Source: Gammaproteobacteria bacterium
Lineage (GTDB): Bacteria > Pseudomonadota > Gammaproteobacteria > UBA4575
Assembly: GCA_965221955.1 (NCBI GenBank)
Contig: CBDCTA010000011.1
Location: 1-21,386, forward strand
Length of the DNA: 21,386 nt
Reading direction: 5' to 3'
The notes beneath the pieces were generated by a model. It ran no database searches. It was given only the letters and a program-made list of their open reading frames with translations, and was not told where the DNA came from. A program made the position numbers and the translations under genes. Shown here in pieces: positions 1-21,356 of the stretch (position 1 is its first letter; every line of letters starts with the position of its first letter).

Positions 1-51
1 AACTAAATCATATTAATTCGATTAAGTGGCAATCTAAATTGTATTATTTTG

Positions 52-79
52 CTGTCTGCTTTCGGCCATTAGCGGACAT
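52..79 (+). repeat. 28-bp palindromic site S1
   Basis: CTGTCTGCTTT-CGGCCA-TTAGCGGACAT; 11-6-11 match to the family consensus. Confidence 0.9.
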
Positions 80-108
80 AAATTAATATGGAGTTTCCCA
101 AAATTTAG

Positions 109-570
109 TTACTGAATTTGAATCTCTTCAAGGTATAAAATTAGCTCAAATATGCGTCCTCGGACAAAAGTTCGACTAAATCTTTCATCAACATATAAAA
201 CACTTTCATGGTCAAAGCGATCACCCCATACAGGCATTGCTCTGGGACCATGCAATTTTAAATTGTCACTGCCTTCTATAGTTCTAAAGATCTTTCTGGT
301 TGGAAAAACACCTTTATTTTCCTGCTGTAGTAATGTCAGATTTACAGGTCTAACTGTGAGTTTTGATGCGTAAACACCATTACCTTTACCATTATCTCCA
401 TGGCACAATGCACATGAGCGCGTATATTCATCTTTACCTGCGGCAATCGCTTCTTGTAGTTCTTCACTATGCCCAAGGTTTGCAAATCCAAAGAATATGA
501 TCAGTGATAATCCTAGCGGCTTCATGATGCTTAAAGTCATACTCATCAACGAACTCCTTATTGATTTCAT
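109..570 (-). CDS. Periplasmic mono-heme c-type cytochrome
   Basis: Signal-peptide-like N-terminus, CxxCH motif (CALCH), candidate distal Met ligand in AMPVWG; true start may be a downstream Met. Confidence 0.88.
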   Translation of the reverse strand: MKSIRSSLMSMTLSIMKPLGLSLIIFFGFANLGHSEELQEAIAAGKDEYTRSCALCHGDNGKGNGVYASKLTVRPVNLTLLQQENKGVFPTRKIFRTIEGSDNLKLHGPRAMPVWGDRFDHESVLYVDERFSRTFVRGRIFELILYLEEIQIQ

Positions 571-719
571 TTACTCACACTATATATTTTCGAGTGCCAA
601 AATAAATATTTATTGAACATGATAACTATGCGACCTTCATCATCTTATGAGCTGGACAATCGGAACCCAATACCAATTAAATCTTTGTTCATATTCTTTC
701 AAAATCGTGCTTTTACTTC

Positions 720-747
720 ATGTCTACTTTCGTCCAATAGCAGACAT
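720..747 (+). repeat. 28-bp palindromic site S2
   Basis: ATGTCTACTTT-CGTCCA-ATAGCAGACAT. Confidence 0.85.
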
Positions 748-759
748 TCCTTATTAGAC

Positions 760-1014
760 TCATTTTTTCGCAGAGGGAGGATGTTTCATTTTCATATAAA
801 CGCCGCCTTTTTCTAATTCATTCAACATTTGATTAAGTCGTTTTTCCTTTGTTTCCTGCCTCTTTGCTTGGTTTATCCAACCTATATAATCATTCTGTTG
901 GTATGCTGGGCGTTGTTTATAGTCTCGTATTAAATTCCGTCCCTCCAAAGCTTTTTTCACAAAGCCAGGCATTGTATTACGTTTGCGTTTCAAATTAGAG
1001 AAACCTTTTTTCAT
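760..1014 (-). CDS. YdeI/OmpD-associated (bacteriocin-protection) family protein
   Basis: Motif YQQNDYIGWINQAKRQETKEKRLNQMLNEL is typical of this family. Confidence 0.8.
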   Translation of the reverse strand: MKKGFSNLKRKRNTMPGFVKKALEGRNLIRDYKQRPAYQQNDYIGWINQAKRQETKEKRLNQMLNELEKGGVYMKMKHPPSAKK

Positions 1015-1056
1015 ATCAAATATATTCTAACAATTATCATCATCATTAAAATACAA

Positions 1057-1084
1057 ATGTCCGCTTTGGGTCGTTAGCCGTCAT
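1057..1084 (+). repeat. 28-bp palindromic site S3
   Basis: ATGTCCGCTTT-GGGTCG-TTAGCCGTCAT. Confidence 0.95.
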
Positions 1085-1129
1085 TTTAAAATTGTAGTTT
1101 GTAGAAGCCAACCAGTTTCCACCATAATT

Positions 1130-1157
1130 TTGTCCGCTTTGGGTCATTAGCGGACAT
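1130..1157 (+). repeat. 28-bp palindromic site S4
   Basis: TTGTCCGCTTT-GGGTCA-TTAGCGGACAT; 45 bp after S3. Confidence 0.95.
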
Positions 1158-1173
1158 TTACTGAATATATATT

Positions 1174-2073
1174 TTAACTATCTGTCTTATTTAGTCCTTC
1201 AATATACATGTGCAAGTAAGTGTTGAATTGCTCAGGTGACTCTAGGTGTAAAAAATGACCGACATCTTTCATAATGACCGCATCATAATCTGCATATTTT
1301 TGATTTACTTCAACATTCGTTGGTGGAATCATGGGAGCAGGTTCTGCATTAATGGCCCGGATGGGTACACCTGCGTTTGAAAACATTTTGGGTAGGTCTA
1401 AATACGCATAATCTCTCAAAAGTGCGATCGCAACATTTGGATCTGCACTTGTCACCTTTTTTAGTATCCACTGCTGTAAGTTTGGGTCAATCAATTTACC
1501 GGATGCATCATTGAACATCGTTGTCAGTGTTCCTACAAAATCATTCTCAAATGCAGCGATCATTGCTTCTGCTTGTTCAGGAGGAAACTCATATTCCGCA
1601 TCGTGTAACGTATCTGCCGCGACTATTCCGATGACTTTATTTGGTAGCCGTCGTGCAACCTCTAAACTCACTGGACCCCCCATGGATTGTCCAACCAAAA
1701 TGATCCTGTTTAAATTTAGCTCATTGATGACTGCCACAACGTCTTGCGCTAATCCTGCAATTGTCCACGCTTCACGATTAGTTGATGACTTGCCATGACC
1801 ACCTAGGTCTAAGGTTACGACTTTATACTGATCATCAAACTCATCTATCTGTTCACGCCAAAATTCATGATTACAAGACCAACAGTGAACAAAAACAATT
1901 GCGGTATCACTCTGACCGCGAACCTCATAATAAATCGATACATCATCAGCAGATTTAACAATTCCAGTGGGCTCAATGAGATTTGATGCACATGATGTAA
2001 GCATTAAATACATCAATGTGAGATTTATTAGTTTTGTAAAATCTTTTAAACGCATAAAGTTAGGAAACATCAT
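1174..2073 (-). CDS. Alpha/beta fold hydrolase, probable lipoprotein
   Basis: FVHCWS oxyanion region, DLGGHG, nucleophile elbow GQSMGG, C-terminal GHF His; lipobox-like LTSC; start uncertain. Confidence 0.9.
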   Translation of the reverse strand: MMFPNFMRLKDFTKLINLTLMYLMLTSCASNLIEPTGIVKSADDVSIYYEVRGQSDTAIVFVHCWSCNHEFWREQIDEFDDQYKVVTLDLGGHGKSSTNREAWTIAGLAQDVVAVINELNLNRIILVGQSMGGPVSLEVARRLPNKVIGIVAADTLHDAEYEFPPEQAEAMIAAFENDFVGTLTTMFNDASGKLIDPNLQQWILKKVTSADPNVAIALLRDYAYLDLPKMFSNAGVPIRAINAEPAPMIPPTNVEVNQKYADYDAVIMKDVGHFLHLESPEQFNTYLHMYIEGLNKTDS

Positions 2074-2105
2074 TCACAATCATACAAGCATTCTCTTTTC
2101 ATAGA

Positions 2106-2600
2106 TTAAGATCGCTTAGCATAATGATAGAGGTCATAAAATTGATCGTTTTTATAAACCTCATTCTTTAGAACACCTTCTAATTCGTAGTCGCATTTTT
2201 CAAGGACACGCATCGAAATACTATTTGGAGCCAAAACAGGGGCGAATAGTTTCTTATACTTTAAATGTTCAAATACGTACTCTGTCATTTTCTGTAGAGC
2301 CTGTGTTGCAATTCCTCTACCCCAATATTCTTCTCCAATCCAATAGCCAATTTCCGCAATATGGCTTTTCCAACCTAACTGAGGAGTAATACCAATACTG
2401 CCAACGAATTCATTCTTATATTCAATGACTTTGGTTATTGCATCATTTTCATGACAACCTGTACTAATCCACCATTCTGCATCTTTACGTGTATAGGGAT
2501 AAGGAAATGTATATATCAGGTATTTAGAAACTTTTTCATTGTTCGCTAAGATAACTAATCGATCAATGTCTTTAACAGTATATTCTCTGAAAGAAAGCAT
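2106..2600 (-). CDS. GNAT N-acetyltransferase, RimJ/RimL family
   Basis: AEIGYWIGEEYWGRGIAT and NSISMRVLEKCDYELEG motifs. Confidence 0.92.
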   Translation of the reverse strand: MLSFREYTVKDIDRLVILANNEKVSKYLIYTFPYPYTRKDAEWWISTGCHENDAITKVIEYKNEFVGSIGITPQLGWKSHIAEIGYWIGEEYWGRGIATQALQKMTEYVFEHLKYKKLFAPVLAPNSISMRVLEKCDYELEGVLKNEVYKNDQFYDLYHYAKRS

Positions 2601-2616
2601 TCTTAAATGTATTTAA

Positions 2617-2644
2617 ATGTCCGCTTTGGGTCGTTAATGGCCAT
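2617..2644 (+). repeat. 28-bp palindromic site S5
   Basis: ATGTCCGCTTT-GGGTCG-TTAATGGCCAT. Confidence 0.92.
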
Positions 2645-2699
2645 TTTGATCGTGTTATTTATTAAATCCAACCTGAATTTCTCATTAGTGACTTAAGCT

Positions 2700-2727
2700 A
2701 TGTCCGCTTTCGACTATAAGCGGACAT
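2700..2727 (+). repeat. 28-bp palindromic site S6
   Basis: ATGTCCGCTTT-CGACTA-TAAGCGGACAT; 55 bp after S5. Confidence 0.95.
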
Positions 2728-2768
2728 TTTAGGCTACTAGTATTTGTAATTAGTTATCTACTTAGAAA

Positions 2769-3056
2769 CTATAAAATATGGCGACGAATTAAAATCCAAG
2801 CAAGCGGCAGTAACGCAATCAAAGCCGATATTATTAATGAAGTGCTAAACGTGCCTTCTCGCGCTTCAATAATACACTGATATACAGCTATTCCTGCAAT
2901 TACAAAGCTGAGCAACACCGATATGAGAAACAATGGTGCTGTAGACCATGCACCCCATCCATCATAATTGCGAACATACAATTCAATTCCAACAAGAACT
3001 GAAACAGGAACCAAGCAAAGAAATTCTAGTATATGCTTTCGGCCAATAGCGGTCAT
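2769..3056 (-). CDS. Hypothetical membrane protein (about 3 TM helices)
   Basis: Three hydrophobic segments; ATG and first 9 codons lie inside site S7. Confidence 0.7.
   Translation of the reverse strand: MTAIGRKHILEFLCLVPVSVLVGIELYVRNYDGWGAWSTAPLFLISVLLSFVIAGIAVYQCIIEAREGTFSTSLIISALIALLPLAWILIRRHIL
3029..3056 (+). repeat. 28-bp palindromic site S7 (left arm degenerate, overlaps two ORFs)
   Basis: GTATATGCTTT-CGGCCA-ATAGCGGTCAT. Confidence 0.85.
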
Positions 3057-3253
3057 TCGAAAAATCCATAGAATATCATTGCGATACCTATCATTATGAG
3101 CAAGAACGATGGAACAGTAATTTTATCTTCTGGGTTTGATAATGTGGGTTCGGGGAAATTAAGGCCAGATTGATACCACATGTACGCACCATAAAGTATC
3201 AAGATAAATCCACAAACAGTGATTAGAAATCTTATTAATTCGTTTCTATTCAT
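3053..3253 (-). CDS. Small hypothetical membrane protein (2 TM helices)
   Basis: Two hydrophobic segments; stop TGA is inside site S7. Confidence 0.65.
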   Translation of the reverse strand: MNRNELIRFLITVCGFILILYGAYMWYQSGLNFPEPTLSNPEDKITVPSFLLIMIGIAMIFYGFFE

Positions 3254-3273
3254 TTGAAATAATATTTACATAA

Positions 3274-3301
3274 ATGTCCGCTTTGGGTCATTAGTGGTCA
3301 T
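3274..3301 (+). repeat. 28-bp palindromic site S8
   Basis: ATGTCCGCTTT-GGGTCA-TTAGTGGTCAT. Confidence 0.95.
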
Positions 3302-3318
3302 TAGATAGTTATTAATAA

Positions 3319-3642
3319 TCATTTGTACTTACTATGTTCCCAATGCCAATAATTATCTAAACATTCATAATCAGATAATTCTACTGTTTCGCTAAGCTTT
3401 GTCTCAATAAAGCTATTCAATTTTTCAATCAAATCTTCGATGCCTTCCCATTTCTCTATAAGAAAAACATCATGTTTATCAGCTAATTTTTTTATTGAAA
3501 TTGGTGTGCACAACTGAAGATAAAAGCTATCTCCTGTGTTATTTTCGCCCACATTGATTACAGCTGAAGCAACAAAGTCCAATGGATCATCTGGCTCCCA
3601 ATCAGCTTTTTCATTAATAGATATATTTAAAATTTTGAGCAT
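3319..3642 (-). CDS. Imm8-like immunity protein (polymorphic toxin systems)
   Basis: WEPDDPLDF...GDSFYLQLCTP...YWHWE pattern and size resemble Immunity protein 8. Confidence 0.65.
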   Translation of the reverse strand: MLKILNISINEKADWEPDDPLDFVASAVINVGENNTGDSFYLQLCTPISIKKLADKHDVFLIEKWEGIEDLIEKLNSFIETKLSETVELSDYECLDNYWHWEHSKYK

Positions 3643-3659
3643 CAGGACTTAATAAATTA

Positions 3660-3687
3660 ATGTCTGCTTTGGGTCGTTAGTAGTCAT
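3660..3687 (+). repeat. 28-bp palindromic site S9
   Basis: ATGTCTGCTTT-GGGTCG-TTAGTAGTCAT. Confidence 0.92.
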
Positions 3688-3742
3688 TTTGAAGCTTTGT
3701 TTTGAAGATTCCAACCTGACTTCCCTTAAATTTATCTAAATT

Positions 3743-3770
3743 ATGTCCGCTTTTGGCCAATAATGGATAT
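3743..3770 (+). repeat. 28-bp palindromic site S10
   Basis: ATGTCCGCTTT-TGGCCA-ATAATGGATAT; 55 bp after S9. Confidence 0.88.
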
Positions 3771-3792
3771 TTTCAATTTTACATTAAGACAT

Positions 3793-3822
3793 AAAAAAGC
3801 CTCGATTCTATGACCGAGGCTT
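3793..3822 (-). terminator. Rho-independent terminator after the Met-rich protein gene
   Basis: Minus strand reads AAGCCTCGGT-CATAGA-ATCGAGGCTT followed by a T run. Confidence 0.8.
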
Positions 3823-3898
3823 CTTGTGAGGATGGATTATTACTCTACTCTAATTTTGAGAGATAAGTTTTAATCCTATTGCTTCCTGCAATTCTTTA

Positions 3899-4519
3899 TT
3901 ATTTAGTCGCCATGTTATCTGCAACGATAGGAGCTTGAAATCCTGCAAACATTTGCTGGAACCAATCAGGGTTTGTCATGGCTGCTGCACTTTCTTGTTG
4001 CCATTTTGGATCCATCACCTTGAACATTGGTTGATAGGTTTGTGGATTCATTGATACATTCATCCATTGTGTATAGTACGCAGGATTCATAAATGCATAA
4101 AATGGCTGATAGAACTGAGGGTTCATAGAAGCCGCCATCCAGTTAGTATACATCTGTGGATTCATAAACTGAGCCATCATAGCTGACCATGCTGCAGGAT
4201 TACTGTAGTACGCCATGACTTTATTCCAGGTCTCAGGCTTCATTGAACATTCCATCATGTTTGGTGCTGATTGAGGATTGCTCATAATCATCATCATTTC
4301 AGTGAACTTTGATGGGTCGGCCATTGTTTCAGCAAACACAACTGGGTCTAGATACTTTTCTAGTTTGCAATCCGTTGTAGCAATGGCTTGAGTTTCTTCT
4401 TTCGCCACTTCTTGGTCACTGCTAGCGGATGCGACAGCATAGACACTGAGAGCAATCATTACCGCACTGAGTACCGATATGTACATTGTTTTAGTAAGTT
4501 TCATTTTAGTTACCTTCAT
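3899..4519 (-). CDS. Secreted Met-rich MNP-repeat hypothetical protein
   Basis: Signal peptide ending near AVA-SA; about 10 units of 11-13 aa built on M-N/D-P. Confidence 0.8.
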   Translation of the reverse strand: MKVTKMKLTKTMYISVLSAVMIALSVYAVASASSDQEVAKEETQAIATTDCKLEKYLDPVVFAETMADPSKFTEMMMIMSNPQSAPNMMECSMKPETWNKVMAYYSNPAAWSAMMAQFMNPQMYTNWMAASMNPQFYQPFYAFMNPAYYTQWMNVSMNPQTYQPMFKVMDPKWQQESAAAMTNPDWFQQMFAGFQAPIVADNMATK

Positions 4520-4564
4520 TAAAGTTAGTGAATAAATTGATTTAAATATCTCGATTTTTCATGA

Positions 4565-4762
4565 TTAGTTGTACTGACCTGCTTCAAGTGAAGAATAAAA
4601 TTGAAGGGGTTCAGATGAAAAAGGTTCTTGCATTAGATATTGATTTGATTGCATGTGGGCAACTTTCATTTCTTCAGGCAATACGATCTGATTGGCAAAG
4701 ATTGTCAATGCCAAAGTAGTTAATCCAAGAAATACAATTGTTCGAAATGACGCAATTTTCAT
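4565..4762 (-). CDS. Small hypothetical exported or membrane-anchored protein
   Basis: 65 aa, N-terminal hydrophobic helix, AGGA SD-like sequence upstream, co-oriented with 3899..4519. Confidence 0.55.
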   Translation of the reverse strand: MKIASFRTIVFLGLTTLALTIFANQIVLPEEMKVAHMQSNQYLMQEPFSSEPLQFYSSLEAGQYN

Positions 4763-5060
4763 AATTTAGAATCCTAAAAAGTAGTTACTTACCTTGCTAA
4801 GGCATTTTGCGCCTTATACAAAGTTCAATAATTACAACAATTTTTAGACCAACCTTGTCTGATTAAGCGGCTTGGCTCAGCTTTAGTGAAAATTTACACC
4901 AGCCGAGCTCATCCTTGCTGGCACGTATAGTACATTTGATTTAAAGTGCAACAACTGCTCTATTGGTATATTAGGATATACTAATAGAGATAACGTGAGG
5001 CTTTAGTGTTCTAGCCTCTCAGTTACGTTGTCATAGGTGGCAGTAAAATTAATTTTGCTG

Positions 5061-5088
5061 ATGTCTGCTTTGGGTCGTTAACAGTCAT
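5061..5088 (+). repeat. 28-bp palindromic site S11
   Basis: ATGTCTGCTTT-GGGTCG-TTAACAGTCAT. Confidence 0.9.
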
Positions 5089-5133
5089 ATTGAACGTGTT
5101 ATTAATTGATTCCAACACATTGTGTCCCTTATT

Positions 5134-5167
5134 TTGTCCGCTTTCCTTTCGGCCAATAAGCGGTCAT
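5134..5167 (+). repeat. Site S12 with internal 5-bp duplication
   Basis: TTGTCCG-CTTTC-CTTTC-GGCCA-ATAAGCGGTCAT; 45 bp after S11. Confidence 0.85.
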
Positions 5168-5261
5168 CTACGTTAAGCCGCAACATAAATAGCCACAGCA
5201 ATTGTGGTATGAAAGCTTGACTAACCAGGTTTATTGAACAAAAAAATTTACAACACCTATA

Positions 5262-5573
5262 TTAAAATTTATCTAATCTGAATACCTGAGCATTGCTTAG
5301 ATACATAACTATTGCGTAATTTTCGAAATATTTATCCTTTAAGTAAGATGAGATTTGTTTAGCTAATTCGATATTGCATATTATTTCAATACGAATATTG
5401 CTTTCTGTTTCCCAGCCGCCCATTCGTGAGCCGCGACGACCTTTTCCACGCGCATTGACTATCGTGTAACCATTTACACCCAATGTTTCAAAATCATCTA
5501 CTAAAGAAGACTCGATAGTTGCTTCAGTTATTATTGTTAGAACTTTAATATTGTGAATATTTTCAGTAGCCAT
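5262..5573 (-). CDS. sbtB: P-II-like regulator (SbtB-type)
   Basis: LTIITEA...LGVNGYTIVNARGKGRRG...NIRIEII P-II-like pattern, directly downstream of an SbtA-family gene. Confidence 0.8.
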   Translation of the reverse strand: MATENIHNIKVLTIITEATIESSLVDDFETLGVNGYTIVNARGKGRRGSRMGGWETESNIRIEIICNIELAKQISSYLKDKYFENYAIVMYLSNAQVFRLDKF

Positions 5574-5578
5574 GAACT

Positions 5579-6520
5579 TTATCCTATAGTGACACTATAC
5601 AAAAACTTAGCCAGTGATAAATATATTGGAATTCCAAAAATAACATTAAACGAAAATGTAATCCCAAGTGAGGCAGTAAGTGATAGAGTAGGATTTGCTT
5701 CAGGAACAGAAATACGCATAGCCGCTGGTACTGCAATATATGATGCGCTTGCTGCCAAAGTCGCCAACATACCAATGCCTCCGATTGATAATCCTAAAAG
5801 TAAACCGATAAAGCTTCCTATGACTGCGGAGAATAAAGGCATAAGGATTCCAAAAATAGCCAAAAATAGACCATGATCTTTCAACGCACCTACTTGCATA
5901 GCTGCAATCAGCCCCATTTCAAGCAAAAAGATTGCAAGCACCCCTTTGAATAAATCAAAAAATAGTGGTTGTATCGATGATATTCCATCTGGCCCTGCTA
6001 TCCATCCAATTAGTAAACCACCAACTAACAGTATAATTCCTTTGCCAAGAAAAACTTCATGAAACACAAATGACCACTGTGTGTCTCTAGAAATTCCTTT
6101 TGCAAGAATAATTCCAACCAAAATTGCAGGAATTTCCAGAAGAACTAAAAGTAAAGGCATGTGCTCTTCGTAGAAAATATTTCTAGTCCCATAATAGGCT
6201 ACTGCTACCGCAAAAGTGCCGACACTTACAGACCCATAGTGAGCGGCAATAGATGCTGCATCTGCCTTTTTAAATTTTCCCAAAAAACGCAATACTGGAA
6301 ATGCAATCAATGTCAAAATTGATCCCATAAAAATTACAGCCAACATATCTGGAATAAGACTAATGAGAGATTGCTTTGCTAGCTCAACTCCACCTTTCAA
6401 CCCAATTGAGATAAGAAGTAGAAAACTAATAAATTCATAAATCTGTGTGGGCAATCGCAATGGAGAGCGAAAGATTCCAGCTAAAAATCCCAGTAAAAAA
6501 AATAAGATGATAGGATCGAT
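5579..6520 (-). CDS. sbtA: Sodium-dependent bicarbonate transporter family permease (SbtA-type)
   Basis: IGLKGG, IAAHYGSVSVGTF, AASASYIAVPAAMR motifs; frame stays open upstream of the ORF-track start (6460) through DPIILFFLLG to an ATC at 6520 with an SD. Confidence 0.9.
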   Translation of the reverse strand: MDPIILFFLLGFLAGIFRSPLRLPTQIYEFISFLLLISIGLKGGVELAKQSLISLIPDMLAVIFMGSILTLIAFPVLRFLGKFKKADAASIAAHYGSVSVGTFAVAVAYYGTRNIFYEEHMPLLLVLLEIPAILVGIILAKGISRDTQWSFVFHEVFLGKGIILLVGGLLIGWIAGPDGISSIQPLFFDLFKGVLAIFLLEMGLIAAMQVGALKDHGLFLAIFGILMPLFSAVIGSFIGLLLGLSIGGIGMLATLAASASYIAVPAAMRISVPEANPTLSLTASLGITFSFNVIFGIPIYLSLAKFLYSVTIG

Positions 6521-6564
6521 GATTATTCCTTTTATTTTTTCAATTCAACATGCTTTTAAATTTA

Positions 6565-6592
6565 ATGTCCGCCTTGGGTCGTAAGCAGTCAT
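6565..6592 (+). repeat. 28-bp palindromic site S13
   Basis: ATGTCCGCCTT-GGGTCG-TAAGCAGTCAT. Confidence 0.9.
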
Positions 6593-6804
6593 CCTATATA
6601 ACCTCTAAACTCTAATTGAGCATTTCTTTGTATTTGCTTTAATCGTTCAATTCTAATTTGTAGTTGACTGCTACGGTCATATTCTTGCTTATATAAATGG
6701 ATGTAGTCATTTAATTCTTCATTCGTTTGCAGCAATGCTTGTCGAAGCTCGCCAAGTGTCATATCTTGCATCTTTTTTCTAAGAAGCTTTCGTAAAGTGG
6801 TCAT
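6589..6804 (-). CDS. Small coiled-coil hypothetical protein
   Basis: 71 aa with heptad-like Leu spacing; stop TGA falls inside site S13. Confidence 0.55.
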   Translation of the reverse strand: MTTLRKLLRKKMQDMTLGELRQALLQTNEELNDYIHLYKQEYDRSSQLQIRIERLKQIQRNAQLEFRGYIG

Positions 6805-7897: not shown

Positions 7898-8912
7898 TTA
7901 TGTTGTTTGATCAAAATCAAAATCATCTAAGCTTTGCACCACTTTCTTAACATTCTTAAAATAAGCAACATGAAATAAAGGGTCACCCTCGTAGACCAAA
8001 GGTATATGTGATTGACCGATAATGATCCCATCATCTGATGCAATTATTTCTTCTTGATTATGATAGTCACAGACATCTTCTACATACCCAATAATCTGAT
8101 CCTCTTTTAATTACCTTCCCTAAACGGATTCTAGATCTGAAAATACCGCTTACTGGTGAACGCATCCAACTACTTGATTGCGCCACTTGTGGAATAATGC
8201 TATTTGATGGGCTTTTCGCAAGAGGTGAAAGCATTTTGATGTGCCTCATTACATTCAGAACACCATTTAACCCCGCTTTAATTCCCGCTTCACTAAAGCG
8301 CATAGCCTCACCTGCTTCATAGACAAGTATCTGCACATCTTTCATCCGAGCTGCTTCTCGTAGCGACCCATCACGGAGCTTTGAATTAACAATAACGGGC
8401 ACGCCAAAAGCTTTTGCTAATTCAGCAATACTGTCATCATTCAAATCGGCGCGTATCTGAGGAAGATTATTTCGATTCAAAGCAGCTGTGTGTAGATCAA
8501 TACCATATGTACACTTTGATACGACTTCATTCATAAACAAATATGCAAGTCGACCCGCAAGCGATCCACGTGATGAACCCGGGAAGCACCGATTTAGATC
8601 ACGACGATCTGGCAGATATCTAGAATGTTGCAACATTCCATATATGTTTACAGCAGGGACGGCAATAAGTGTCCCCGATAATCTTTTTACTGAAACTTTC
8701 TTTATGAGGCGCCTAACTATTTCAACACCGTTTAATTCATCGCCATGTATCGCAGCACTTACAAATAATCTTGGCCCATCATTTTTACCTCGAATCACAT
8801 GTACCGGCATCGTCAGCGGTGTATTGGTATACAAAGGGGGGAGCTCTAGCTGCAGAACTGTGCTTGTTCCTGGCTTTATATCGGTACCAGCAATTATTAT
8901 TTCTTCAGCCAA
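7898..8912 (-). pseudogene. Succinylglutamate desuccinylase/aspartoacylase (AstE/AspA, M14-type) family gene with a frameshift near 8105
   Basis: HGDELNG, DLNRCFPG, IDLHT motifs; expected C-terminus (GIIIGQSHIPLVYEGDPLFHVA) continues in another frame to TAA at 7898-7900. Confidence 0.8.
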
Positions 8913-16056: not shown

Positions 16057-17520
16057 CTACAATTCTTCAATACTAAATTCGTCAACTGCTGTAGCCAAAC
16101 CGCCAAATGGATCCCATTCTGCTTTAACAACTGATCCAACATTTATTGCCGCAAAAAATGCAGCAACCGTAATTGCATTATTATTTTCATCGAAATAAAG
16201 TGTTCCTGCATCTACAATAAGCGCATTACCGAGAATTGTTACTGATGTATTTGCAAGAAATGCATCCACAAGGCCTTGCAATTCCACCTCAGTGTCTGGA
16301 TCTTCACGTTCAATTCGTGTTGCAACTAATTGTGCACCAATAAATGATCCGCGCATTTCAATATAGTCACCAGTCATAATATCGGCTAAGCCAAATTGTG
16401 GAAGACCAATTGCACTTTTATCTTCAAAACGGGTGGTGGGTGTTACATTAATTGTTTCACCAAGTAATGTAATAGTTTGAGCTGCAACATTAGTTGCATC
16501 TGTAATTGCAGTTATTCTTATGAATGAATCTGGTTTAATAATGATTCTCGTTGCTTGAATAACATTAAACCCATCTAATGTCCCTTCAACTTCAACTTTT
16601 ACATTTGCTGCAACATCAGCAACATTTGCTGGCAGTCCATTTTCAAATTCAATTGTTGCACCGAATCCATTAACGGCTTGCCCATTAACTTCAAAGTCTG
16701 CAATAGAATTGAATACGGTGATAATGCCCTCTACTTCAGCCTGCTCTCCTACTACGGCATTCAGCTCAAGACCGTTTTCTAGATCAGAAGCTGTAAATGT
16801 GTTGCCCGCGAATGCTGCTACTGGACCAATCACCTCAACTACCAACCCATCGGCCAATGCATTAGATAAGTTAGCTTGATTAGCCGCAGCAAAATTGACT
16901 GTTAGCCTTGTTGCAGGACCAAATATCTCAAATGTGCTTGCCGCAACATTTAAATTATCTACTTGTCCAATTACACGATACTGTGTTGTGCCATTTCTAA
17001 TACGGATGTAACTCGCTACTATTTCACCAGCTACCGTACGAACCCCACTAATCTCAACCCGTGTTACATTTGCAACAAAGTTTGCAGCATCAAAAGGAAC
17101 ATTATTAAAGAAAGATGTTGTGTCATTAATAATAATGCGTTGATTAAGAACCGTCATTGTTCGATTAACAAAATCTACTGCTTGTACGGGTCCTCGCACA
17201 GTCTCTGCATATTCAACACTTGAAGCTGTATTATTTGAGAAATTAACTTCTGCACGTACAACTTGACCGACTTCAAGATCACCTTCCACCGCAGCAGCAT
17301 CGTTAATTGTGAACGTTGCACCACCTGTGGCAAACTCAATTCCATTTAGAATAATACTTGCGAAACCATCAACAGAACCAAAGCTGACTCCCGTTCCGCC
17401 TATGCCGCCACTGACAGAAGCAAAACTGCCTCCACCTCCGCCGCCGCTACACGCAGAGATAATTAAAAGAATAGCGGTAAAAATACCGTAAAGAGATTTT
17501 TTAAAATTAGTTATTATCAT
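16057..17520 (-). CDS. DUF5666-domain lipoprotein
   Basis: Lipobox ISAC, Gly linker, GGIGGTG, repeated G-x-V/I...VEVEG OB-like modules; likely start at ATG 17520. Confidence 0.85.
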   Translation of the reverse strand: MIITNFKKSLYGIFTAILLIISACSGGGGGGSFASVSGGIGGTGVSFGSVDGFASIILNGIEFATGGATFTINDAAAVEGDLEVGQVVRAEVNFSNNTASSVEYAETVRGPVQAVDFVNRTMTVLNQRIIINDTTSFFNNVPFDAANFVANVTRVEISGVRTVAGEIVASYIRIRNGTTQYRVIGQVDNLNVAASTFEIFGPATRLTVNFAAANQANLSNALADGLVVEVIGPVAAFAGNTFTASDLENGLELNAVVGEQAEVEGIITVFNSIADFEVNGQAVNGFGATIEFENGLPANVADVAANVKVEVEGTLDGFNVIQATRIIIKPDSFIRITAITDATNVAAQTITLLGETINVTPTTRFEDKSAIGLPQFGLADIMTGDYIEMRGSFIGAQLVATRIEREDPDTEVELQGLVDAFLANTSVTILGNALIVDAGTLYFDENNNAITVAAFFAAINVGSVVKAEWDPFGGLATAVDEFSIEEL

Positions 17521-18355
17521 TTTTATCAACATCCTCAATCTCATATTCCTCGTCAGCCTCATCCATCATATAAATACCAAGACCTATTCGCGTCTTGCCT
17601 TTTCCTTTGATGTCTGGATTTGAATCACGATCTCGTTTCTCCAACCAGCGGTCTAATCGCTCTAATAACTCCTGACTAAGCTTAGCGCTATGTTTTCTAA
17701 ATGCTTCTAGATGATCTAGCGGCACATTGTCATAACTGACTTTACGTTGAAACTTAGCTTCTTCTTTTTTATGAGTTAAATTGTAATCAATAGTTTTAAT
17801 TAGATCTGCTGTATCAGTTCCCAGTATTTGTAACTTATCTACATCACTTTCGTGTGGCACATATCCTTTTGTTACAAGTTTCAGTGTGTTATTGCGTGAT
17901 AGTTCAATTGCTTTAACTCTTAACAGTTCATCAGCTACTGCACGTGCCGGCATATCTCCACTATATTCATTCACTAACTCACTGAAACTTTTATCACCTT
18001 CAAATGGTAAAACTGCAGGTGAACCCGACTTCGTTCTATAACGCGTATCACGTAACCAAGCTGTTAATACTCGGACTGCGCGGTTATAACGTTCATCAAC
18101 TTCAGTATGTTCAACAGGTGGTAGTTTTTGTATACGCGCAACCTCTTTACGGTTTAAACCCGTAATTACAGAAATTCTGGAGGCAGTTTGTTTTTTGCCT
18201 TCAACTTGGAATTCTTTTTCTGCTACTTCCACGTAAACCCTTCTTACTATTTCCTCAAATGCACCAGCTGACACTCCATACCGCAAGAGTATGCGTACAA
18301 GTGGCCTGAGTATGCGAACAATCGCATGTATAACAACCTTCGAGTGTTTTTCCAT
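17507..18355 (-). CDS. DUF6502-family protein, putative DNA-binding regulator
   Basis: LRPLVRILLRYGV, SRISVITGLNRKEV (HTH-like), SFSELV...GDMPARAVADEL, FQRKVSY; lies between DUF5666 genes. Confidence 0.8.
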   Translation of the reverse strand: MEKHSKVVIHAIVRILRPLVRILLRYGVSAGAFEEIVRRVYVEVAEKEFQVEGKKQTASRISVITGLNRKEVARIQKLPPVEHTEVDERYNRAVRVLTAWLRDTRYRTKSGSPAVLPFEGDKSFSELVNEYSGDMPARAVADELLRVKAIELSRNNTLKLVTKGYVPHESDVDKLQILGTDTADLIKTIDYNLTHKKEEAKFQRKVSYDNVPLDHLEAFRKHSAKLSQELLERLDRWLEKRDRDSNPDIKGKGKTRIGLGIYMMDEADEEYEIEDVDKNDNN

Positions 18356-18382
18356 TCATCTCTAAAGTCTCAGTTATAAAAT

Positions 18383-18417
18383 AAAAAGCAGTCTCATCCA
18401 TGAGAGCTATGCTTTTT
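18383..18417 (-). terminator. Intra-operon hairpin or terminator
   Basis: Minus strand AAAAAGCA-TAGC-TCTCAT-GG-ATGAGA-C-TGCTTTTT followed by ATTTT. Confidence 0.55.
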
Positions 18418-18443
18418 ACTTTCAAGGAGTACCTGAAACTTAT

Positions 18444-19904
18444 TTAGTCCTCTAGTTCAAGTTCTTTTACTGGATCCGTAATATTATTAAACGGATCCCA
18501 CTGACCCTGCACAACTGTTAATCCAGCTGTAAGGGAGTTAAAAAATGTGGCTGCAGTGATCACTTGATCATTCAAACCGTCGTATTCAGTTTGAGCATTA
18601 GTATTAAGCGTTAAACCTAACACAGTTACCGTCCTTGCAACTGCGTCGAATGCTGTAACTGGGCCACGAACACGTGCATCTTGGTCTGGATCATCGCGCT
18701 CTAATTCAGTTGCAATAAAAGCTGAATTTGCACCAATAAATCCTCTTATTTCTAGATAATCATTCACTTGAATATCTGCAAAACTAAATGGATTATTGCT
18801 TGTATTATCTTCGAGATCAGTTTGAGGAGTAACTGTAACTACAACACCATTATTCGCCAACATTGTTAATGTATTAGCGCCTTTTGCTGCCACTGTTCCA
18901 ATAATTCGTGCATCGTTATCTTCGAATTTGACTTTAGTTGCGACTAAAGTACCTGAGCTATTAATCGTACCTTCAACTTCAAGACGTGTTCCAACTTGTA
19001 TTTGATCTGCTGTACCAAACAAGAATTGTGTATTTGCATTGGTAACTACAGTTAACCCATTTATCACAAACATGTTTGGTGAAATTACTTGAGTGACTAC
19101 ACTTTCAATTTCAACACGTGCCCCTGGATTCGCACCGCCCCCAAATGGTGCTTGAGGCTCAACTTTAGTCGCAGATAACATAAAAGAATTTGGAACATAT
19201 GCTTTATTCATATCCTTAACTTCTACAAGTTGACCTTCAACTGGTACACCATTAGCTAAATCATTTACATCTGCCGCACTGTAGTTCACAGTTAAATCAT
19301 CAATCTGGAATGTCATAGCAGCAGTATTTAAATTACGCACATTACCTATTACTTCGTAATCATTTAAATTTGCACCATTGCCTTTGTTCTCTATGAATGT
19401 AGCGATGATGTCATCATTTGCATTTCTAAAACCACTAACCTCAGCAACTGTACCCGCTGTAAGTGTTGCAAGCCCTCCATTATCAAATACTGTTTGAGCA
19501 TCTGTTATAACAGTTTGACCCATTACACTTAGTGTTCCACTGTTGTTATTCACATCAACAGGACCTTCAACATCCTCTTCAAATTCAACACTTGATGCTG
19601 AGTTATTAGAGCTTGCCTGTACAGTGACTCTCATCCCTAGATTGAGATCACTTTCTAAGACTTGTTGTTCGCCACGAATAATCATTGCATTCGTTGTGTC
19701 ATATCGAACACCATTTACAAAAACACTACTAAAACCCGTAATTGTTCCAGTACTGCTAAGTGATCCAGAAGAACCAGATGAAGCCGAATCTCCGCCTCCT
19801 CCGCCTCCGCCACTACATGCAGTAAGAAATGCAATCAATACAAATGCGGTTAGTAATTGCTTCCAAAATAAATTTTCAAAACTACCTTTATTTTCTATTC
19901 TCAT
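18444..19904 (-). CDS. DUF5666-domain lipoprotein
   Basis: Lipobox LTAC, Gly/Ser linker, GTITGFSSVFVNG, repeated modules; AAGGAG SD; paralog of 16057..17520. Confidence 0.88.
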   Translation of the reverse strand: MRIENKGSFENLFWKQLLTAFVLIAFLTACSGGGGGGGDSASSGSSGSLSSTGTITGFSSVFVNGVRYDTTNAMIIRGEQQVLESDLNLGMRVTVQASSNNSASSVEFEEDVEGPVDVNNNSGTLSVMGQTVITDAQTVFDNGGLATLTAGTVAEVSGFRNANDDIIATFIENKGNGANLNDYEVIGNVRNLNTAAMTFQIDDLTVNYSAADVNDLANGVPVEGQLVEVKDMNKAYVPNSFMLSATKVEPQAPFGGGANPGARVEIESVVTQVISPNMFVINGLTVVTNANTQFLFGTADQIQVGTRLEVEGTINSSGTLVATKVKFEDNDARIIGTVAAKGANTLTMLANNGVVVTVTPQTDLEDNTSNNPFSFADIQVNDYLEIRGFIGANSAFIATELERDDPDQDARVRGPVTAFDAVARTVTVLGLTLNTNAQTEYDGLNDQVITAATFFNSLTAGLTVVQGQWDPFNNITDPVKELELED

Positions 19905-20827: not shown

Positions 20828-20855
20828 AATATCGCTTACGACCCAAAGCGGACAT
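20828..20855 (-). repeat. 28-bp palindromic site S14 (inverted orientation)
   Basis: Minus strand ATGTCCGCTTT-GGGTCG-TAAGCGATATT. Confidence 0.9.
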
Positions 20856-20901: not shown

Positions 20902-21150
20902 TCAATCACTAATTTCATAATCTGTTCTTACACCGCTTTTATGACTCCACAGCTCTGCAATTTCCTTGCTATCTTCAAGATCTTCACACACTGCCTTTAA
21001 ATCATCTAAAGTGATTTCCAAGTCATAAAAATGTTTATATCCAGAACTTACAAGTTCCTTTAGTAGTTCTTTTGGTGTAACAAGGCTATCTTTACAAGCT
21101 TTTTCAAGCATTTTTTGAAATTCTTTTTTAGCGTTAGGCCCATATCTCAT
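20902..21150 (-). CDS. Hypothetical protein
   Basis: 82 aa, AAGGA SD upstream, flanked by S14 and S15. Confidence 0.65.
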   Translation of the reverse strand: MRYGPNAKKEFQKMLEKACKDSLVTPKELLKELVSSGYKHFYDLEITLDDLKAVCEDLEDSKEIAELWSHKSGVRTDYEISD

Positions 21151-21328
21151 TGAAACTTATCCTTATAAAACAAGTTAATTCAAGACCTTTTGAATAAAAG
21201 GCGAGCGAATATATCTCCGAAATCTATATTTCGGATATATCTATAAATGAATGCTAGTAAGAACTTGGTTTAAGGGATAATTTGTAGGTTTTTTTAACTA
21301 AAAAAATACCACACACTTAAAAATACTA

Positions 21329-21356
21329 ATGTCCGCTTTTAGCCGTAATTGGACAT
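21329..21356 (+). repeat. 28-bp palindromic site S15
   Basis: ATGTCCGCTTT-TAGCCG-TAATTGGACAT. Confidence 0.88.

Follow-up and report, generated by a model that had tools for sequence, protein, structure and literature searches.

Among the short palindromic repeats that lie between bacterial genes are the repetitive extragenic palindromes (REPs) of Escherichia coli, which also form composites known as bacterial interspersed mosaic elements (BIMEs), one linker type of which contains a site for integration host factor (IHF). Another such repeat is the attC site of integrons, which is an imperfect palindrome of about 57-141 nt of the form R''(RYYYAAC)...R'(GTTRRRY) with conserved AAC and GTT end triplets. 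The accessible text of two studies describes BIMEs as regularly spaced REPs with short linkers (PMC2817692, PMC3333891), and that of a third describes REP families of the CGTC group, in which the tag is unpaired, the stems of 8-9 bp start with AT, the loops measure 4-5 nt, and a CCA tail is present (PMC3733652). Correia elements, according to the accessible part of another report, are able to provide a neighbouring gene with an outward promoter and to bind IHF and RNase III (PMC2649163). Here, we describe an element that invites comparison with each of these repeats, found in a 21,386-nt stretch of DNA from a gammaproteobacterium of the UBA4575 lineage (contig CBDCTA010000011.1 of assembly GCA_965221955.1), the whole of which we refer to as the window. 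The window contains 15 copies of a 28-bp near-palindrome, which are of two types, A and B, and four A-B pairs (doublets) enclose a linker of 45 or 55 nt that features the motif CCAAC at a constant position. Based on sequence comparison, we propose that each doublet is probably a copy of a single REP/BIME-like composite repeat located between genes, in which the CCAAC block is part of the A unit.

The element resembles the REPs and BIMEs of E. coli in consisting of short imperfect palindromes with many extragenic copies near gene 3' ends, and in forming composites with few discrete linker lengths and a conserved internal motif. In contrast to E. coli BIMEs, the units are direct and occur in a fixed order (A then B in the window, and hp1, hp2, hp3 in the wider family described below) rather than alternating, the IHF consensus is absent, the REP-associated tyrosine transposase (RAYT) was not seen, the sequence is unrelated, and the stem is conserved across classes of Pseudomonadota. 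The GTAG and CGTC superfamilies, as far as the accessible part of their description goes, are likewise palindromic repeats found across phyla, with many members in Alphaproteobacteria, a CGTC group without a linked transposase, and a TGTC variant of the tag (PMC3733652). Unlike in the CGTC families of that partial description, TGTC is paired within the stem of our element, the loop is 10 nt long (or the arms are 11 bp and the centre 6 bp), and no CCA tail is present. The Correia elements of Neisseria, which are the closest precedent for a repeat that acts as a portable promoter, share with the doublets a length of ~100-150 bp, boundaries formed by repeats, and short and long forms, but they are miniature inverted-repeat transposable elements with target duplications, whereas here the ends are direct near-palindromes, single units occur often, target duplications were not seen, and the promoter is a candidate. 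Integron arrays (attC, e.g., the Vibrio repeats) share the arrangement of small, unrelated, co-oriented, and mostly promoterless genes with a repeat of ~30-110 bp between them. Unlike such arrays, the window lacks intI, its single junctions of 28 nt are too short for attC, an R''...R' palindrome of at least 57 nt was not found, and sites in other genomes lie beside housekeeping genes.

Paired palindromic sites and the CCAAC block

The 15 site copies counted in the window belong to one repeat family and have a 9-bp stem (ATGTCCGCT / AGCGGACAT) and a 10-nt loop, with an alternative reading of 11-bp arms around a 6-bp centre. When the window was scanned with the 15-mer site core at up to 3 mismatches, 13 matches were found against 0.19 expected, and none of 100 shuffled sequences reached 13. 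Among these 13 matches, one is the opposite strand of a palindromic site and one (17375) resembles a chance match; copies with matching arms number 11, and the sites at 5134-5167, 20829-20855, and others came from a separate site listing. All sites in that listing lie on the + strand except the one that starts at 20829. A-type sites have the loop TTGGGTCGTT and read, on the + strand, as ATGTCCGCTTTGGGTCGTTAG followed by a degenerate right arm, with the left 21 nt nearly invariant and a short AT-rich tail preceding the palindrome. B-type sites have the loop TTCGGCCAAT and, as a rule, form a good hairpin. Every doublet shows the order A-linker-B on the + strand, with start-to-start spacings of 73 and 83 nt, and the neighbouring genes are encoded on the minus strand. 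In all four doublets, the B site, located where the upstream gene ends, forms a more stable RNA hairpin than the A site, which barely folds. The doublets comprise the following features, with energies given for the RNA hairpin on the gene strand:

1057..1084, + strand, A site of doublet 1; left 21 nt conserved, right arm degenerate; -2.8 kcal/mol
1085..1129, + strand, linker 1; 45 nt, CCAAC at position 24; minus strand TTGGCT (1111-1106)-N17-TAAAAT (1088-1083)
1130..1157, + strand, B site of doublet 1; good hairpin, -12.2 kcal/mol, z-score -5.4
2617..2644, + strand, A site of doublet 2; 16 nt from the start codon (2600) of a GNAT gene; -0.6 kcal/mol
2645..2699, + strand, linker 2; 55 nt, CCAAC at position 24; minus strand TTGGAT-N17-CAAAAT
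2700..2727, + strand, B site of doublet 2; perfect 10-bp stem, -14.4 kcal/mol, z-score -5.5
3660..3687, + strand, A site of doublet 3; 17 nt from the start codon at 3642; 0 kcal/mol
3688..3742, + strand, linker 3; 55 nt, CCAAC at position 24; minus strand TTGGAA-N17-CAAAAT; top match of the linker profile described below
3743..3770, + strand, B site of doublet 3; right arm degenerate, -2.2 kcal/mol
5061..5088, + strand, A site of doublet 4; core match, -3.2 kcal/mol
5089..5133, + strand, linker 4; 45 nt, CCAAC at position 24; minus strand TTGGAA-N17-CAATAT
5134..5167, + strand, B site of doublet 4; 34 nt through a 6-nt insertion in the loop, -8.6 kcal/mol

A preliminary description of this DNA had reported the linkers as 45, 55, 55, and 45 nt long, with an opening shared by three of them, CCAAC at an invariant offset, and a pyrimidine run after it. 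We reproduced the coordinates and found that CCAAC starts at linker position 24 in 4/4 linkers, that WTTGA opens 3/4, and that each contains a TTYCC-like run located 8-13 nt downstream of the start of CCAAC. The same description held that the rest of the linker is diverged, which we correct here: over the first 33 nt, each of the six pairs shares 18-23 of 33 positions, against 27% expected at random, and the alignment has 13 invariant columns among the 33. Outside CCAAC, this stretch is about 60% identical and has no other run of five invariant columns; the CCTGA beside the block is conserved as well. Judged by this alignment, the first ~33 nt of the linker are homologous among the four doublets, which means, first of all, that the common offset of CCAAC reflects a stretch without insertions or deletions (indels). 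Past position ~33, alignment between the 45-nt and 55-nt forms breaks down, and the two 45-nt linkers are built differently (CCAAC+3+TTTCC+9 versus CCAAC+8+TCCC+5). The two lengths arise from indels in the unconserved right part of the linker.

The repeat in other genomes

To place the element in a wider setting, a collection of genomes (596 Gb) was scanned with the 15-mer core, which yielded at least 137 stretches, 80 of them with long flanks; all figures for the wider family are among the matches listed. By our own arithmetic, ~1,100 matches to the 15-mer would be expected by chance in 596 Gb. At least 144 distinct matches were found in other genomes, and 100 of the 144 listed extend into the full hairpin in the right register. 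This continuation into the right arm indicates that most of the listed matches are real members of the family.

Three related loci, which come from low-G+C genomes like the window (36% G+C), carry the block. In the locus L033/L034 (OZ252002.1), a single A-linker-B doublet is present; its linker measures 54 nt, has CCACC at position 24, and aligns in its right half with the 55-nt forms of the window. In L119, an A site is followed by the block with CCAAC at position 24 and by no B site in the remaining 288 nt, and in L090, CCAAT lies at position 25 and a half-decayed B site follows after ~31 nt. The linker alignment runs without gaps from the window copies to all three, and all seven aligned sequences, which represent at least three genomes, keep CC.A. 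When a profile built from linker positions 1-40 was searched against the window and 137 loci, it matched the four window copies, L119, and L033/L034; the sole further match, 20 nt in L042 (E=8.2), is unconvincing. These alignments indicate that the left part of the linker, with the block, belongs to the A unit, and it is because the first ~33 nt belong to this unit that the offset of CCAAC from A is fixed whatever follows. Furthermore, L119 has the block without a second site, which indicates that the fixed offset is not a property of doublet spacing.

These loci also bear on what had been claimed for the linker. The positional conservation of CCAAC extends beyond the window, at the same or nearly the same offset in the few extra loci. 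The suggestion that the linker is a constrained unit holds insofar as the block is kept at a fixed offset in three further loci, but the constraint is tied to the left (A) site and not to the doublet. The proposed difference of one helical turn between the 45- and 55-nt lengths is not a general rule, as relatives have linkers of 54 and ~31 nt and the wider family has a 17-nt spacer.

In loci from metagenome-assembled genomes (MAGs) of Alpha- and Betaproteobacteria, the taxonomic labels of which may be wrong for short contigs, the same stem occurs with three loop types in the fixed order hp1, hp2, hp3. The loops are TTGGGTCAAA for hp1, TTACCCCCRAA for hp2, and TTGTGCCAAT for hp3; these classes are defined by our own regular expressions, and all loci were found through hp1. 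A spacer of 17 nt separates the units in 31/40 hp1-hp2, 22/26 hp2-hp3, and 8/10 hp1-hp3 pairs, and the spacer sequences vary between lineages although the length is 17 nt. The family-wide period is 45-46 bp. With members in Alpha-, Beta-, and Gammaproteobacteria, the family is widespread in Pseudomonadota. Window A corresponds to hp1 and B to hp3, with the linker as a lineage-specific middle part that is not a recognisable hp2. We rejected the possibility that the linker is a decayed hp2 of the alphaproteobacterial triple, as neither the lengths (45/55 versus 62-63) nor the sequences align.

Structural readings of the doublet were also discarded. Pairing of CCAAC with the GTTAG of the A loop or with the TTGGG loop is contradicted by L033, L119, and L090, which change one side without compensation, and a shared RNA fold of the doublets is contradicted by z-scores that range from -4.7 to +0.2 with differing structures. 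A strand-specific bias toward G-U pairs, as would befit a role in RNA, was inconsistent between units (38 versus 53 for hp1, 31 versus 31 for hp2, and 35 versus 22 for hp3), and the hp1 counts are biased by the way in which the loci were found. Rfam at the gathering score returned nothing in the window or 14 loci except two tRNAs, and its E-value mode gave two matches at chance level. A blastn search of a plasmid collection with doublet 1 gave no match, and a search for tRNAs as island borders found none. Literature searches, including searches with sequence and peptide strings, found no description of the 28-bp palindrome family, which seems to be undescribed.

We also considered which genes adjoin the sites. 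Among the matches listed, 138 open reading frames (ORFs) that adjoin sites in other genomes were scanned in sets of 34 and 104, the latter being a list of 111 minus 7 that were already covered in the set of 34 as selves or as duplicates from overlapping loci. The neighbours are ordinary chromosomal genes, which include those for a chaperonin, D-Ala-D-Ala ligase, phosphofructokinase, a sigma factor, and many binding proteins of ABC transporters. No transposase was found among the 138 ORFs, and one phage-type integrase was present, 3 kb from a site. Gene orientation was counted for 65 clusters with a called ORF within 400 nt on both sides, for which the ORF calls are crude. The flanking genes are co-directional as in the window in 22/65 clusters, convergent in 20/65, co-directional in the opposite sense in 14/65, and divergent in 9/65, such that 56/65 clusters face at least one gene end and 9/65 lie between divergent starts. 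The repeat therefore shows a REP-like preference for gene 3' ends, with weak polarity.

Taken together, the family consists of short imperfect extragenic palindromes in many copies, and its units form composites at regular spacing (45/55-nt linkers; 17-nt spacers), as in REPs and BIMEs. Several findings weigh against this assignment. Successive units are direct and ordered 1, 2, 3 rather than alternating, as judged by the asymmetric loop, and clusters of mixed orientation are rare. The element does not fit the GTAG and CGTC superfamilies, from which it is set apart by the accessible part of their written description (PMC3733652). Stem mismatches are mostly uncompensated and without strand bias, which gives no sign of selection for an RNA hairpin. 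A Y1 (RAYT) transposase was not seen among the 26 ORFs of the window or the 138 site-flanking ORFs elsewhere; the RAYT gene is usually single-copy, so it could sit elsewhere in the genome. Within the window, 12 of the 15 sites fall in 6.6 kb of small, unrelated, co-oriented genes, which resembles a cassette array more than dispersed REPs. As for the block, 4/8 A-type sites in the window lack it, and the linker sample is small (four from the window and three related sequences). We file the sites as a REP/BIME-like family that is set apart from the described families by its direct units, its lack of a tag, and the RAYT not having been seen.

A candidate promoter and competing explanations for the block

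Read along the gene strand, the B hairpin lies just after the upstream stop codon and is followed by the linker, the A site, and the next start codon. In this arrangement, the message from the upstream gene would be capped by the B hairpin, a role that REP hairpins play in enterobacteria. TTGGnn, the complement of CCAA plus two bases, would be the -35 box of a weak promoter of the sigma-70 type, and (T/C)AAAAT, which lies 17 nt further along and straddles the boundary between linker and A site, would be its -10-like hexamer. From this promoter, transcription would restart within the A site, giving the downstream gene a conserved leader. That the linker block is such a weak outward promoter is a tentative suggestion from sequence, which we would not call probable; when the identity of the doublets as a composite repeat and the weak-promoter role are taken as one explanation, the chances appear to us to be even.

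In support of the promoter, the best-kept parts of the gene strand are linker positions 22-27 (NNCCAA, which reads TTGGNN) and positions 1-4 with the last two bases of the A site. The TTGGnn-N17-(T/C)AAAAT register scores 7-9/12, and all four linkers have TTG, A2, and T6. In the relatives, the register reads GTGGAA/TTTAAT, TTGGGT/TAAAAT, and, with an 18-nt spacer, TTGGAA/TTGAAT. Start codons follow the A site at 16, 17, and 42 nt for doublets 2, 3, and 1, respectively. Also in favour, linker 1 passes a consensus scan, and the B hairpin of every doublet is the more stable of the two. A further feature concerns the gene downstream of doublet 3:

3794..3825, - strand, intrinsic-terminator-like hairpin with a T-run; ends gene 3899-4519 and, read along the genes, comes immediately before doublet 3

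If this hairpin (3825-3794) ends the upstream gene, then gene 3319-3642 would need a promoter within 3643-3793.

Other observations count against a promoter. The match is weak at 7-9/12, and linker 1 alone passes a scan for the promoter consensus, which the other three of the four linkers fail. The 7-kb region has 20 promoter-like matches against a mean of 28.8 in shuffled sequence. The TTG/A2/T6 pattern occurs at 0.2% of positions, and by our own arithmetic, approximately one chance occurrence is expected per 110-bp element when both strands and three spacer lengths are counted. Doublet 4 lies 298 nt from the next ORF, and the module in L034 faces the 3' end of a convergent CBS-domain gene that is ~165 nt away. 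Finally, the conserved CCTGA by the block is not accounted for by a -35 box. From the earlier proposal of a portable promoter module, a possible register thus survives, although it is weak and passes the consensus scan in one linker of four. Sigma-E-like and sigma-54-like readings were rejected on inspection against their consensus sequences, as the spacings do not fit.

The block could instead have been kept by descent or copying only, without function, in which case the doublet would be a decaying longer repeat and the linker lengths accidents of indels. Homology of the linkers favours this explanation, since a common offset then needs no function, and so do the different internal arrangements by which the two 45-nt linkers reach their length, the relatives' linkers of 54 and ~31 nt, the lack of the block at half of the A-type sites in the window, and the mostly uncompensated stem mutations of the family, as seen in decaying repeats. 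However, CCAAC is the sole invariant run of five columns amid ~60% identity, CC.A persists in all seven aligned sequences, and conservation is uneven, with a nearly invariant left part of A and an unalignable right part of the linker, which argues for some constraint. On balance, we regard purely inert descent as unlikely, although it deserves serious consideration. Alternatively, the block could be bound by an accessory protein, either a nucleoid protein or one that works at the palindromic sites, with the distance from A to B kept in helical phase, much as some E. coli BIMEs have an IHF site in their linker; we judge this improbable. The centre-to-centre distances of 73 and 83 bp are ~7 and 8 turns (our own arithmetic, at 10.5 bp/turn), the same 45-nt length is reached by different routes, and the wider family holds its spacer at exactly 17 nt while the sequence varies, which suggests that length is constrained. 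Yet L119 keeps the block without any B site, linkers of 54 and ~31 nt exist, and a period of 45-46 bp, as found across the family, does not amount to an integral number of turns. Nor does IHF fit this role: the best matches of the linkers to its consensus (WATCAANNNNTTR) are 6-8/9, share no common position, and are no better than in shuffled linkers.

A different kind of explanation takes the 28-bp 11-6-11 palindromes as core sites of a site-specific recombinase, the left 6.6 kb as a series of mobile cassettes, and the linker as the promoter of each cassette. The more specific form would be an integron-like array of low-G+C gammaproteobacteria with double-stranded palindromic sites of several centre types, rather than folded attC, in which the A-linked linker provides promoter and leader. 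We consider the general form very unlikely, and the integron-like form has an equally slight chance of being correct. The geometry is suitable, with an asymmetric 6-bp centre that differs between site types, and in 1-6600, a site is present at each of nine consecutive junctions that separate small, co-oriented, unrelated genes, which encode cytochrome c, OmdA, an alpha/beta hydrolase with a GNAT protein, two small membrane proteins, an Imm8-like protein, two proteins of unknown function, and SbtA with a P-II protein. A similar arrangement occurs in OZ252002.1, where a 4.5-kb stretch of small genes has a site after each gene and 4/5 exact core matches listed fall within one 2.1-kb segment of the 2.76-Mb chromosome. 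On the other hand, no recombinase is encoded in the window, and one distant integrase was found among the 138 ORFs by sites elsewhere. Sites of the wider family flank housekeeping genes in all four orientation classes, the G+C of the array is the same as that of the rest of the window, and inspection and folding found no R''...R' palindrome of the attC type. No Phage_integrase match, as expected of an integron integrase, was found in the window, beyond the left end of which the array continues and an integrase gene could lie. All-against-all blastn of the loci for empty sites gave no usable syntenic pair, and the 14 kb of larger genes after the array showed no convincing site, with arm matches at 8281 and 18249 (13/18) that resemble chance. 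An attC reading of the GTTGGAT (linker) and GCTAAC (A) motifs was also rejected upon inspection of both strands, which showed the wrong order, a distance of ~30 nt, and no hairpin across the element.

Further sites, neighbouring genes, and significance

Besides the doublets, the window contains sites that stand alone or have another arrangement:

52..79, + strand, single B site; any left partner would fall outside the window start
720..747, + strand, single B site; 13 nt after the stop codon of ORF 760-1014; -9.1 kcal/mol
3029..3056, + strand, degenerate B site; flanked by ORFs for small membrane proteins, one of which (2769-3056) has its listed start within the site
3274..3301, + strand, single A site; intergenic, 17 nt from the preceding stop codon and 20 nt from the following start codon, no CCAAC block after it
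6565..6592, + strand, single A site; overlaps the stop codon of ORF 6589-6804 and precedes the likely sbtA start (6551) by 14 nt
20829..20855, - strand, A site in opposite orientation; core match
21329..21356, + strand, A site; with 20829-20855 brackets an 82-aa ORF as inverted repeats

The 95-aa ORF 2769-3056, whose listed ATG is overlapped by a site, probably starts further downstream. The 82-aa ORF (20902-21150, minus strand), which has no match in Pfam or NCBIfam, lies between inverted A sites with 39-nt arms that are 74% complementary and reach past the sites. To the left of A sites, ~13 nt are also alike (roughly CTTAAAAATAnTA) at 1044-1056, 2604-2616, 3261-3273, 3647-3659, 6552-6564, and 21316-21328. 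On the gene strand, this left flank supplies a TTTAAG-like motif 6-16 nt past the site and just before several start codons, which may be a weak ribosome-binding region carried by the repeat.

An SbtA-type bicarbonate transporter and a P-II-like partner are encoded at 5262-6551, with doublet 4 on one side and the single A site at 6565 on the other. As its Pfam match starts from profile position 20, SbtA probably begins with the ATG at 6551 and not with the TTG at 6460. Among the larger genes, 16057-19904 encodes paralogous DUF5666 proteins (501 and 486 aa) around a DUF6502 protein, and this duplication accounts for several direct repeats in the window (D6, D8, and D10). The 128-aa ORF 15582-15968 matches the last ~46 residues of TamB only and may be a gene fragment or a small protein with the C-terminal domain of TamB; this tail was the only NCBIfam match among 11 small ORFs.

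In L034, a 13-nt motif (CTGACAAGTTAAC) occurs in direct copies at 1492-1504 and 1544-1556 and in an imperfect inverted copy at 1654-1666, all in non-coding DNA that immediately precedes the site array of OZ252002.1, and resembles operator or arm-type sites. Right after the doublet of the same locus (~2310-2350) is a T-arm-like stretch (GGGGTTCGAAT...), in which ARAGORN finds no tRNA and which may be a tRNA 3' fragment that marks an old integration border. Several loci from Alpha- and Betaproteobacteria MAGs (L057-L060, L067-L069, and L071) feature tandem paralogous ABC_sub_bind (PF04392) genes, some of them split by frameshifts, each followed by a hairpin cluster. In L062/L063, a segment of ~1.7 kb beside site clusters is repeated at 98.7% identity in the same contig, and the flank of one site is shared with L029, which is from another contig of the same MAG.

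The finding is a modest addition to the composite intergenic palindromic repeats, and the kind of feature is ordinary. If the linker does serve as a promoter, the doublet would be a gene-junction module in which a hairpin caps one message and a promoter and leader serve the next, which would explain how unrelated small genes with almost no intergenic space are expressed. The wider result may matter more, namely that a 28-bp palindrome with three loop variants, a fixed order, and a 17-nt spacer occurs in Alpha-, Beta-, and Gammaproteobacteria, and the breadth of this conservation suggests that a conserved host or mobile factor reads the repeat.

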